This document shows, piece after piece, positions 1 through 3,000 of a DNA stretch of 14,018 nt. The first letter of the stretch is position 1. Every line of letters starts with the position of its first letter. Source of the stretch: a virus (taxonomy: Duplodnaviria; Heunggongvirae; Uroviricota; Caudoviricetes); the IMG/VR virus record IMGVR_UViG_2703718801_000013. One strand, written 5' to 3'. Made by a program: the position numbers.

Positions 1-3000
1 CTCATTTAGCGGCAACTTTCTTAATCACACCTTTCGACGAGAAAATCCCATGTCAGAAATTACATCCCTGGTCACTGCAGAGGCAGTGAAGGACGTCCTG
101 CGCTCTGAAGAAGTCCGGAGCGCACTGAAACAGAAACTTCGCCATAACCTGGAAGCGCGTCTTGATGCAGAAGTGGATGCCATTCTGGATGAACTGCTTG
201 GTGTACAGGCAGAGCCACCGACTGAAGCGGGAGATACCACCGCAGAGAGCGGTGAAGTTCAGCCTGAATCACCGGTCGCCGATGCGACTGAACCTCAACC
301 CGAATCGGTCATGATGCTGTAACGGGGAGTCAGGGCCATCAGTAAACAGCTGCTGGCCTTTTTCATGTTGTGAGCTTCCGGATTGCGGGAGACGGGGTAT
401 GTACCAGATGGAAAAAATCACAACAGGTGTGTCATACACCACGTCAGCGGTGGGAACGGGCTACTGGTTCCTGCAGTTGCTGGACAGGGTTTCCCCGTCT
501 CAGTGGGCGGCAATAGGCGTGCTGGGGAGTCTGCTGTTTGGTCTGCTGACGTACCTGACGAACCTGTATTTCAAGATTAAAGAAGACCGGCGTAAGGCGG
601 CGCGGGGAGAGTAAGCTGATGAGCAGGAAATTCCGCTATGGTTTATCAGCGGTAGTTCTGGCGCTGATTGCCGCAGGTGCTTCTGCGCCTGAAATCCTCG
701 ACCAGTTTCTGGATGAAAAGGAAGGTAACCACACCACGGCATACCGTGATGGTGTGGGTATCTGGACCATCTGCCGTGGAGCCACCCGGGTGGATGGTAA
801 GCCTGTGATTCCTGGCATGAAGCTGTCGAAGGAAAAATGCGACCGGGTTAACGCTATCGAACGGGATAAGGCGCTGGCATGGGTGGCGAAGAACATCAGA
901 GTGCCACTGACTGAACCCCAGAAAGCGGGTATTGCGTCATTCTGTCCTTACAACATTGGCCCCGGTAAGTGTTTCCCGTCGACGTTTTATAAACGAATTA
1001 ATGCAGGTGATCGAAAAGGTGCCTGCGAAGCGATTCGCTGGTGGATTAAGGACGGTGGCAGAGACTGCCGTATCCGCTCAAATAATTGCTACGGTCAGGT
1101 ATCAAGACGTGACCAGGAGAGTGCGCTGTCATGCTGGGGTATCGACAGGTAAGCAGAATATTTTGCTGAAAAATGACGTTGGCCAACGCGGGCAGATAAC
1201 ACGAAATCCTGCGAACTGGCAAAATGTAAGTGAATAAAGTCAACAAGATTGTTTCATGAAGAGGCACCGTAATGGTGCCTTTGTCATTTCTGCGCTTCGC
1301 ACAAGCGTAAATAAACCAAAGAACCTTTCAGGATGAGCCCTGGTGGATAACCGGCAGTGGTCTGGTTAACCCTCTTTGGGCTGGTTATTCCTGTGCGCAG
1401 GGTTCATCACTAAAAGGAAATAACCGATGAATATGATGACCGTGCCGTTTCACGGCGATTCTCTTTATGTGGTTAACCATAACGGCGAACCATACGTTCC
1501 CATGAAACCTGTCGTTGCGGGGATGGGGCTGGCCTGGCAATCACAGTTGGCTAAGTTAAGACAGCGTTTTGCGTCAACTATAACGGAAATCGTTATGGTT
1601 GCTGAGGATGGGAAACGACGCAATATGGTGTCCCTGCCGCTTCGAAAACTTGCAGGCTGGTTACAAACCATCAATCCCAACAAAGTAAAACCCGAAATCC
1701 GCGGCAAGGTAATCCAGTATCAGGAAGAGTGTGACGATGTTCTCTATGAATACTGGACGAAGGGTTTTGTCGTTAATCCCCGTCGAATGAGTGTGATGGA
1801 AGAACTCAATCAGGCTTGCGCTGACATGAAACGGGATAAAAACATTGCCAGTGTGTTTGCTACCGGGCTGAATGAGTGGAAACAGGTTAAATCCGCGCAT
1901 GTATCAAAAATCCGCACATTGATAAACGAAGCGAATCTGCTGATTGATTTTGTCCTGGCTGATACAGGCAAAGGGAAAATAACAAAGGCGGATTGATGGA
2001 GTGGTGGCTAATGATATCGGATAAACTCATAACGCTGGCGAAGATCCTCTGTGTAATCGTCGGCATTTCATTTTTAGTCATGCTGGTTGCCATTTTCTTT
2101 TCCACCGCCTGGCGAGTCCTGACGTTATCGGGACTGGTGGGGTGAAAGAGAGATGAATCGTGTTCTGTGTGTGGTGATTATTGTCCTGCTGGTAGCCTGT
2201 GGTGCGCTTAGTCTGGGGCTGAATCAAGCCGATGCGAGAGCTGAAAATGAAACTCTTCGCGCTGACGTTGCCGCTGGTTACCGCAGCCTGCGGATCAACG
2301 CCACCTGTCCAGGTCCCGTGCGTGAAGCCACCGGCACCGCCCGCGTGGATAATGCAACCGGCCCCCGACTGGCAGACACCGCTGAACGGGATTATTTCAC
2401 CCTCAGAGAGAGGCTGATCACTATGCAAAAACAACTGGAAGGAACCCAGAAGTATATTAATGAGCAGTGCAGATAGAGTTGCCCATATCGATGGGCAACT
2501 CATGCAATTATTGTGAGCAATACACCCGCGCTTCCAGCGGAGTATAAATGCCTAAAGTAATAAAACCGAGCAATCCATTTACGAATGTTTGCTGGGTTTC
2601 TGTTTTAACAACATTTTCTGTGCCGCCACAAATTTTGGCTGCATCGACAGTTTTCTTCTGCCCAATTCCAGAAACGAAGAAATGATGGGTGATGGTTTCC
2701 TTTGGTGCTACTGCTGTCTGTTTGTTTTGAACAGTAAACGTCTGTTGAGCACATCCTGTAATAAGCAGGGCCAGCGCAGTAGCGAGTAGCATTTTTTTCA
2801 TGGTGTTATTCCCGATGCTTTTTGAAGTTCGCAGAATCGTATGTGTAGAAAATTAAACAAACCCTAAACAATGAGTTGAAATTTCATATTGTTAATATTT
2901 ATTAATGTATGTCAGGTGCGATGAATCGTCATTGTATTCCCGGATTAACTATGTCCACAGCCCTGACGGGGAACTTCTCTGCGGGAGTGTGCGGGGATAA

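Follow-up and report, generated by a model that had tools for sequence, protein, structure and literature searches.

A conserved pseudoknotted leader RNA precedes a gene of predicted Ant-Rha architecture in the lysis region of a Shiga-toxin phage

The DNA analysed here (the window: the whole 14,018-nucleotide stretch of IMG/VR record IMGVR_UViG_2703718801_000013, Caudoviricetes) covers the late region of a 933W-like (Traversvirus) Shiga-toxin (Stx) phage in which an antirepressor-like gene, the ant or d_ant of Stx phages, lies between the endolysin gene R and the spanin gene Rz. We found that the 274-bp gap between R and ant (1153-1426, + strand) contains the main part of a conserved, pseudoknotted, structured leader RNA, which is sense to ant and in which the Shine-Dalgarno sequence of the gene is paired, and that the same leader stands directly in front of rha in phage P22. 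Judged by its domain matches, the 189-aa product of the ant-like gene (1427-1996, + strand) is a two-domain chimera of an Ant-type head and a Rha-type tail. This architecture, the leader, which is absent from Rfam 15, and the link to P22 rha are new, whereas the gene order is not.

The order was already known among the 933W-like Stx phages, where the function of the gene is only a matter of speculation; GenBank records have carried the annotation 'ant' between R and Rz for about two decades. In phi24B d_ant was placed 'downstream of the R gene', and both an antirepressor role and targeting by the small RNA 24B_1 were proposed for it without a functional test (PMC4426718, PMC10732415). A previous inspection of the window, referred to here as the sequence-only reading, had noted that a 274-bp gap, a 189-aa gene and a membrane open reading frame (ORF) separate endolysin and spanins, and had pointed to related arrangements of unestablished function in some Shiga-toxin-type prophages. 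The three elements were found where it had placed them, and d_ant of phi24B is such an arrangement. As the observation concerns gene order and not statistics, chance is not an issue.

A conserved structured RNA ends at the start codon of ant

About 140 nt in front of the ATG of ant can be aligned across E. coli, Photorhabdus, Hamiltonella and Proteus despite non-homologous flanking lysis genes, and RNAalifold predicted a long-range helix with compensatory changes within this leader. A covariance model (R1; 142 positions, 37 pairs) was seeded with degenerate-pattern matches in IMG/VR and with loci from GTDB. The raw pattern scan of IMG/VR yielded 78 loci, about one third of them chance matches, and was filtered by the covariance model. 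R1 recognized 72 instances in 90 loci (49-149 bits, 49 distinct sequences). All of them share the strand of the gene that follows and stop at its start codon (ATG or GTG), and no reverse-strand score exceeded 24.5 bits. The window contains one copy at 1291-1429, on the + strand only, with a score of 95.9 bits (E ~1e-26).

Pairing was counted for 41 pairs in the 49 distinct sequences. In this alignment, which is fitted to the model, 93.9% of the pair cells are standard compared with 83.3% in shuffles, and double changes occur at 36 of the 41 pairs; none of 500 shuffles matched any of the measures. When the partners were slid against each other as a control, pairing fell to 30-48%. One position has G:U as its most frequent pair (41 of 49 sequences), a pair legal on the + strand only, and the frequent G:U pairs therefore identify + as the RNA strand.

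The pseudoknot was examined with a permutation test that is independent of the aligned columns. Among 23 distinct combinations of loop and target the mean complementarity was 5.78 nt, compared with 4.11 +/- 0.19 nt after permutation, and none of 2000 permutations reached the observed value. The variants include CCGCA/UGCGG, CCACA/UGUGG, CCGAAA/UUUCGG, CUAGCA/UGCUAG, UGCCC/GGGCA, CUCACC/GGUGAG and CUGACG/CGUCAG. The double changes together with this alignment-free test argue that the signal of the leader is real.

The leader of the window has a minimum free energy of -50.1 kcal/mol (z -3.64; none of 200 shuffles as stable) on the + strand, and z is -2.56 on the - strand. In six lineages the values range from -45 to -57 kcal/mol. 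Identity between the window and distant members is as low as 47-59%, with the pairing retained. A search of Rfam 15 at E <= 1, with C4, isrK and AgvB/AsxR included, gave no match to the leader in positions 1-3300 of the window or in five other loci, and we found no description of it in the papers that were searchable. The gap, which the sequence-only reading had taken to be untranslated, is indeed so, but it is not empty, since it holds a terminator-like hairpin and the conserved 139-nt structured RNA.

Anatomy of the leader

The 139-nt leader, which ends at the ATG of ant, begins with a small hairpin H0 (1291-1309), whose stem is formed by 1291-1297 and 1303-1309 and whose loop spans 1298-1302. 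All four modelled pairs of H0 show compensatory changes and 98.4% of the cells are paired. The 5' strand of the pseudoknot, CGCACA (1298-1303), comprises the H0 loop and pairs with UGUGCG at 1392-1397, which is located in the asymmetric internal loop between helices P2 and P1.

The remainder of the leader is a long hairpin consisting of P0, P1 and P2. At its base, in the minimum free energy structure, the anti-Shine-Dalgarno sequence CCUUU (P0, 1324-1328) is paired with AAAGG (1413-1417), the Shine-Dalgarno sequence of ant. The two pairs with its GG (alignment pairs 44-154 and 45-153) are standard in almost all sequences with letters at these positions, as C:G in 40-41 sequences and U:G in 2, with one non-standard cell. 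P1, the helix seen by RNAalifold, joins GAUGAGCCCUG (1332-1342) to CAGGGUUCAUC (1398-1408), and 10 of 12 P1 pairs are compensatory. The 5' strand of P2 (GGAUAACCGG, 1345-1354) pairs with 1381-1390, with double changes at 9 of 10 pairs.

The apical region of P2 (1355-1380) contains the most sequence-conserved unpaired bases of the leader, with the consensus GCUGRUG...CUUCGAUGGGCUG. It also carries a direct repeat of the P2 3' strand (CUGGUUAACC at 1362-1371, CUGGUUAUUCC at 1381-1391). Conservation and repeat together suggest a binding site or an alternative pairing.

Two other features of the leader were considered and dropped. A mini-ORF beginning AUGAGCC in P1 was rejected as a conserved peptide, as its AUG is missing in several of the covarying variants, and a closing stem GAACC:GGUUC was superseded by the P1/P0 model.

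The leader precedes P22 rha and genes with different N-terminal domains

In P22 the model R1 matches with 104.1 bits at 39507-39646 of NC_002371.2 (locus L123, 2204-2343), directly upstream of rha. The annotated start of rha (39575, ORF201) falls inside this leader, and the start defined by the model, ATG 39644, gives a 178-aa protein with the domains Phage_pRha and ORF11CD3. The genuine P22 ant region (arc-sar-ant) contains no R1 match.

Across the Enterobacterales the leader precedes genes with N-terminal domains of four families (P22_AR_N, Rha, Bro-N and KilA-N). The architectures behind it are P22_AR_N with ORF11CD3, Phage_pRha with ORF11CD3, KilA-N with ORF11CD3, Bro-N with an ORF11CD3-like tail, and KilA-N with P63C. 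Directly upstream of the leaders there are 34 distinct ORFs, the majority of which are spanins (i- or o-) or endolysins. The ant homologue of the Photorhabdus, Hamiltonella (APSE-like) and Proteus prophages is located in or next to the lysis cassette after a gap of 170-200 bp, and the holins and endolysins of these prophages belong to other families. The unit stands before Rz in E. coli, Proteus and Hamiltonella and after Rz in Photorhabdus and P22.

Several phages contain tandem units of leader and gene (L006 at 3858-4003 and 4974-5110; L011 at 2939-3082 and 3865-4003; also L071, L079, L080, L106 and L119), and each tandem leader has its own loop and target sequence for the pseudoknot. In the APSE-like Hamiltonella prophage an Ant-type unit is followed in tandem by a KilA-N-type unit, inside the lysis cassette. 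The leader variant of the window was detected in 725 of 5426 complete E. coli genomes, and the carriers have a median of 4 and up to 10 copies. E. coli strains that produce Shiga toxin (STEC) thus hold many copies of the unit in their lambdoid prophages.

In other phages leader-bearing genes are followed, often with an ATGA stop overlap, by a family of soluble ORFs of 67-73 aa (MNHEQFIEKNVQAELIKLGF...GK.F.DC..AK.WA; L054, L101, L115, L094, L071, L055, L006, L011, L010 and L050). This family is unrelated to the small membrane ORF of the window.

The ant-like protein combines an Ant-type with a Rha-type domain

A Pfam search assigned residues 5-113 of the 189-aa protein to P22_AR_N (PF10547, E 8.5e-45) and residues 122-164 to ORF11CD3 (PF10549, E 2.5e-6, 28 bits against a curated cut-off of 25). 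Neither P22_AR_C (PF10548) nor Phage_pRha (PF09669) was found in the protein by the same search. PHROG places it in phrog_524, 'anti-repressor Ant'. Residues 1-126 are 48% identical to residues 10-136 of P22 Ant over 127 aa. P22 Ant itself, a protein of 300 aa, consists of P22_AR_N and P22_AR_C (PF10548, E 7e-31), and P22 Rha carries ORF11CD3 as its C-terminal domain (E 9e-28). The sequence-only reading had named the gene antirepressor-like and had proposed a profile search as a check. This search did recover an antirepressor domain; a complete Ant it is not, as P22_AR_C is replaced by ORF11CD3. By domain content the protein is an Ant-head/Rha-tail chimera, and because its N-terminal domain is P22_AR_N and PF09669 is missing, we classify it as a domain-swapped relative of Rha and not as a Rha orthologue. 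P22_AR_N, P22_AR_C and ORF11CD3 are all part of a domain-shuffling 'Bro network' (PMC10111431).

The AlphaFold model, which was built with 52 homologues, has a mean predicted local distance difference test score (pLDDT) of 72.5, with 79-93 over residues 21-100. It predicts an alpha/beta N-terminal domain followed by a long helical hairpin. The N-terminal domain models as a KilA-N/APSES-type fold, which is best known from DNA-binding domains; a structure prediction had been called for by the sequence-only reading. Searches of PADLOC and NCBIfam gave no match for the protein, and a sequence search of the PDB returned only a spurious match to a designed repeat protein.

Homologues with both domains (174-199 aa) occur in Escherichia, Salmonella, Photorhabdus, Xenorhabdus, Serratia, Proteus, Providencia, Yersinia, Hamiltonella, Sodalis and Arsenophonus, and 42 columns are invariant across the 52 homologues. 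Compared with the Salmonella homologue, nonsynonymous divergence (dN) is 0.16 and synonymous divergence (dS) 1.31, and the ratio of ~0.12 indicates purifying selection; against more distant homologues the synonymous sites of ant are saturated. The gene is thus not silent or pseudogenised throughout its relatives, an outcome that would have counted against the sequence-only reading.

The gene is not intact in every lineage. In the Stx1 phage AU5Stx1 (KU977419; L002, 1628-1700) a tandem duplication of 13 bp (AACCATAACGGCG) shifts the reading frame of ant and leads to a stop after 22 codons, and AU6Stx1 and SH2026Stx1 show the same span pattern at ant. The AU5Stx1 record annotates a restart downstream of the frameshift (180 aa). 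ant is disrupted in this Stx1-phage lineage. Because it is disrupted in AU5Stx1-type phages and absent from PhiR12_2_star, which has the same R and Rz, ant is dispensable.

In a Salmonella prophage (L009) the stop codon of the ant homologue is overlapped by a coupled ORF of 60 aa. This ORF has a signal peptide as well as a lipobox-like LLVGC and could encode a lipoprotein or a spanin-like protein.

The exchangeable unit ends before the small membrane ORF

A comparison with phage PhiR12_2_star (PV340551) shows that the slot between R and Rz is an exchange point. This phage has the same R and Rz and the small ORF, and neither ant nor the leader. Its homology to the window runs to ~1238 (1108-1238 aligns at 87%) and resumes at ~2014. 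Its own R-Rz slot (L124, 2319-2501) is occupied by a terminator of its own and an unrelated membrane ORF of 60 aa whose hydrophobic segment is C-terminal; the small ORF and Rz come next. From these two break points we place the exchangeable unit at ~1239-2013, with the small ORF on the Rz side.

The small ORF of the window (1996-2145, + strand, phrog_4906) encodes a single-pass membrane protein. Its ATG at 1996 overlaps the stop codon of ant as TGATG and gives 49 aa; the part conserved in relatives begins at ATG 2011 (44 aa). It contains one strongly hydrophobic segment with a maximum Kyte-Doolittle value of 3.14 over 19 aa. The ORF was found in 276 phage records; it had no match in Pfam, PADLOC or NCBIfam, and phrog_4906 has no assigned function. 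The PhiR12_2_star copy is 74% identical over 43 aa (dN 0.15, dS 0.48, 43 codons). The idea that the ORF travels with ant was rejected, as it occurs in PhiR12_2_star without ant and leader and as different ORFs follow other leader-bearing genes. It is a separate component tied to the Rz side. The 49 aa counted by the sequence-only reading from ATG 1996 are correct, although the conserved part is shorter; the assignment to the ant insert, which its proposed comparison of cassettes with and without the insert addresses, is contradicted by PhiR12_2_star.

A terminator-like hairpin and no promoter-like site in the gap

Positions 1153-1260 are the 3' flank of R, which is common to the relative without ant and was assigned to the outside of the ant unit. 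They are followed at 1261-1291 (+ strand) by a terminator-like element recognized in a consensus scan, which consists of a hairpin (GAGGCACC-GUAA-UGGUGCCUU, 1261-1281) and a T-rich tract. In 32 of 48 distinct loci, P22 included, a hairpin with a T-run ends 5-31 nt before H0. A consensus scan of 1-3300 detected no sigma-70-like promoter on the + strand, the gap included. A classical moron brings its own promoter, gene and terminator; here no promoter-like site was found on the + strand and the terminator-like hairpin is located upstream of ant. Of 55 leader contexts only 3 contain the IHF consensus WATCARNNNNTTR, which in each case lies upstream of the element and never within it. The prophage anti-sRNAs AgvB/AsxR, which are located downstream of stx, were rejected as content of the gap.

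Between the T-run of the terminator and H0 many loci (among them L046, L070, L093 and P22 L123, ~2185-2203) contain a short conserved stretch UAUC.G.AUUUCAC. Neither the structure model nor the promoter consensus explains it, and the version in the window is shorter (1282-1291).

The lysis cassette and an internal deletion in Rz

The order of the genes in the window is S, R, the unit, Rz, bor, terS and terL. A DUF826 gene (50-322, +) precedes the P21-type class II holin or pinholin S of 71 aa (399-614, +; PF04971, E 7e-33; phrog_9876/phrog_20 holin), which is followed by the phage lysozyme R of 177 aa (619-1152, +; PF00959, E 3e-24; phrog_7 endolysin). Beyond the unit and the small ORF lie the i-spanin gene Rz (2153-2476, +; PF03245) and, embedded in it and intact, the o-spanin gene Rz1 (2232-2417, +; PF06085, E 3e-22). 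Holin, endolysin and the embedded spanin pair thus lie in one orientation, as is characteristic of a lambdoid lysis cassette. The bor lipoprotein gene (2508-2801, - strand; PF06291, E 3e-30) marks the end of the lysis region, and terS/terL begin at 3210. The ant-like gene is located inside the late lysis operon, as the sequence-only reading had stated.

Over bases 300-2900 the window matches Stx2 converting phage I (AP004402), Shigella phage 75/02 and several others letter for letter except for one deletion, in Rz, and one base; the ant region shows 100% identity to AP004402 and further records outside these two differences. The R-ant-Rz arrangement (at least 80% of the region) was found in 211 phage records and in 601 of 5426 complete E. 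coli genomes.

Compared with every close relative found, Rz has lost 141 bp in frame after base 2226 (junction 2226/2227). The deletion removes 47 codons of the periplasmic part, leaving 107 aa instead of 154 aa, and the PF03245 match covers only profile positions 45-126; Rz1 is unaffected. No microhomology was found at the junction, and the junction sequence was not found in IMG/VR. Each of the best 10 matches listed among complete E. coli genomes falls into two pieces. The deletion may reflect a defective spanin or an assembly artefact. In addition, a single T/C difference from the relatives occurs at 2158.

Discussion

We favour, with moderate confidence, the reading that ~1239-2013 is an exchangeable late-operon accessory unit of the class of P22/phi80 rha, and that its gene encodes a Rha-class late accessory regulator under tight translational control. 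The unit would comprise the terminator-like hairpin, the 139-nt structured leader and a two-domain 'Bro-network' gene with an Ant-type N-terminal and a Rha-type ORF11CD3 C-terminal domain. Because the gap contains no sigma-70 promoter and a terminator lies just upstream, ant is presumably transcribed only within the Q-antiterminated late transcript from pR'. Because the ribosome-binding site is held in a long hairpin that is locked by the pseudoknot, translation would be held off or very low until the leader is opened or cleaved. The sequence-only reading had expected expression at the time of lysis from the location in the late operon; the location does not by itself imply this, as the leader hides the ribosome-binding site within a hairpin whose energy is about -50 kcal/mol.

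Release might be brought about by RNase III cleavage of the long helix, by a trans-acting RNA or protein, or by a shift to the GAACC:GGUUC pairing. The long imperfect helix resembles an RNase III substrate and may serve as one. The alternative helix would free the Shine-Dalgarno sequence and is possible, with no support from covariation. The product is probably a late regulator, non-essential and sensitive to dose. Its predicted KilA-N/APSES-like head sits on a helical tail, and this N-terminal domain would set the specificity for a target, either DNA or a partner protein. The swapping of heads behind a constant leader and tail, the dispensability of the gene and its presence in multiple copies in STEC suggest a role against other elements or the host, and the product most probably acts on these rather than on lysis itself.

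The kinship with rha rests on several features. Like the rha genes of P22 and phi80, ant is non-essential and lies in the late operon, next to the lysis genes and before those for terminase. It shares with P22 rha the leader (R1 scores of 104 bits in P22 and 96 bits in the window) and the ORF11CD3 domain. The two proteins differ in the N-terminal domain (Phage_pRha in P22 Rha, P22_AR_N in the window), their similarity is confined to the C-terminal domain (29% over 34 aa, E 0.011), and the P22 unit, in the gene order 13-19-15-rha-...-3, follows Rz where that of the window precedes it. According to the account in PMC4936722, citing Henthorn & Friedman 1995, Rha of P22/phi80 is a non-essential product of the late operon which blocks lytic growth if IHF is lacking. 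By analogy with this harm to lytic growth, as PMC4936722 relates it, the product of ant may be dose-sensitive.

For the leader itself other parallels exist. The lambda N leader with its RNase III site is an example of a structured mRNA leader that occludes a ribosome-binding site. The leader of the window resembles such leaders in that a long, stable, imperfect hairpin of a polycistronic phage transcript holds the Shine-Dalgarno sequence paired at its base; in sequence and architecture it is unrelated to the lambda N type, and it adds a covarying pseudoknot between loop and internal loop as well as a conserved apex.

Several points weigh against the reading we favour. Because the pair counts come from an alignment fitted to the model, the percentage paired is inflated. 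The alternative 'ON' helix GAACC:GGUUC is complementary in 94.8% of cells, with 1 double change, and 13-15 of 500 shuffles are as good. The 5' end of the transcript, its processing and the translational repression are what we infer from the modelled structure, and the triggers proposed for opening the leader are candidates put forward as hypotheses. The phenotype of Rha without IHF comes from the second-hand account in PMC4936722. Finally, the Ant-type N-terminal domain could still mean repressor binding.

This last point leads to the classical antirepressor, the d_ant hypothesis made for phi24B (PMC4426718) and, as cross-induction or anti-immunity, also proposed in the sequence-only reading, in which the protein binds CI-type repressors of its own or of co-resident lambdoid prophages and serves late induction or anti-immunity. 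We consider this possible but unlikely. The head is 48% identical to the N-terminal domain of the sole biochemically defined Ant and matches P22_AR_N as that protein does, PHROG and GenBank use the label 'anti-repressor Ant', and the copies in STEC genomes with the leader variant (median 4, up to 10) would offer many cross-targets. The C-terminal domain of Ant is absent, however, and that of Rha stands in its place. As leader and C-terminal domain are also combined with Rha, Bro-N and KilA-N heads, the common function of the unit is not set by the Ant domain, and the fold predicted for the head is best known from DNA-binding domains. The context differs as well: P22 ant answers to Arc/Mnt operators and to sar antisense RNA and lacks an R1 leader, whereas the gene of the window lies between R and Rz in a late operon, has a leader that sequesters its Shine-Dalgarno sequence and shows no LexA-type, Arc/Mnt or sar-like early control of the kind found in immunity regions. 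No experimental support for the antirepressor had appeared as of 2023 (PMC10732415).

About equally tentative is a more far-reaching version of the favoured reading. The leader may represent a new class of pseudoknotted riboregulator, responding to a ligand, a protein or RNA processing, which gates the translation of a hypervariable family of late Bro-network proteins in enterobacterial phages, P22 and the Stx phages among them. Their heads (Ant-N, Rha, Bro-N and KilA-N on a shared ORF11CD3 tail) would be specificity modules in conflicts between co-resident phages, satellites and hosts.

That the leader is instead the source of a trans-acting small RNA of the immunity type, which would pair with targets through the H0 loop, seems improbable to us. 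As in P1 c4-icd-ant, N15 CA RNA and P4 CI RNA, a structured RNA is located upstream of an antirepressor-family gene and has a loop complementary to a downstream site; a variable H0 loop with a matching target resembles the logic of c4 and CI, terminator and stable hairpin could give a stable processed species, and tandem units within one phage have different loop/target 'codes'. Yet loop and target always covary within one leader at a distance of 90-95 nt, as suits an intramolecular pseudoknot, and the end of the element is always found 9-12 nt beyond the Shine-Dalgarno sequence, at the start codon of a gene. There is no similarity in sequence or model to P1 c4, N15 CA or P4 CI, the Rfam search that included C4 gave no match, and the unit belongs to a late operon and not to an immunity region.

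Slightly weaker still is lysis control, a role also named in the sequence-only reading. The action of holin, endolysin or spanin, or the timing of lysis, would here be tuned by the ant-like protein with or without the small membrane ORF. It would explain the place between R and Rz, and the unit adjoins endolysin or spanin genes even where the phages have unrelated lysis proteins; the small ORF, conserved beside Rz, encodes a single-pass membrane protein, and the AP004402 record bears the note 'regulation of host cell lysis'. This note cites no evidence, the position of the unit varies between before and after Rz, and the unit is absent or disrupted in close relatives that share the lysis genes. 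The protein is a soluble two-domain protein with a predicted KilA-N/APSES-like fold, the small ORF is independent of ant, and we found no link between ant and lysis control.

That the gap is conserved as DNA (promoter, operator or IHF site, recombination linker) is very improbable and largely refuted: Rha is reported to be IHF-regulated in the account of PMC4936722, and the conserved flanks (leader and ORF11CD3 coding region) could serve as linkers for swapping the N-terminal domain, but pairing is kept while the sequence changes, G:U pairs are legal on one strand only, reverse-strand scores stay at or below 24.5 bits, no sigma-70 site was found, and the rare IHF consensus matches always lie upstream of the element.

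In 933W, Stx2 phage I (AP004402), phi24B and BP-4795 the same gene, identical in kind, occupies the same place. To the literature on these genes, which treats ant/d_ant as a putative antirepressor and predicted target of 24B_1, our analysis contributes a leader RNA, the recognition of an Ant-N/Rha-C architecture and a connection with rha.

Of the whole locus it is the leader that merits further work. A conserved RNA that has gone unnoticed in P22 and Stx phages, which are among the best-studied phages, would be useful: it corrects the annotation of start codons, such as that of P22 rha, and further members can be found with the model R1. An Ant-head/Rha-tail chimera in the slot of rha redirects the search for a function away from simple antirepression, and leader and gene together provide a testable handle on two loose ends, the toxicity of Rha in the absence of IHF and the role of d_ant in STEC. 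If the leader is indeed a riboregulator, then in STEC strains, which carry up to 10 copies per genome, it would decide at what point of induction the prophages communicate.

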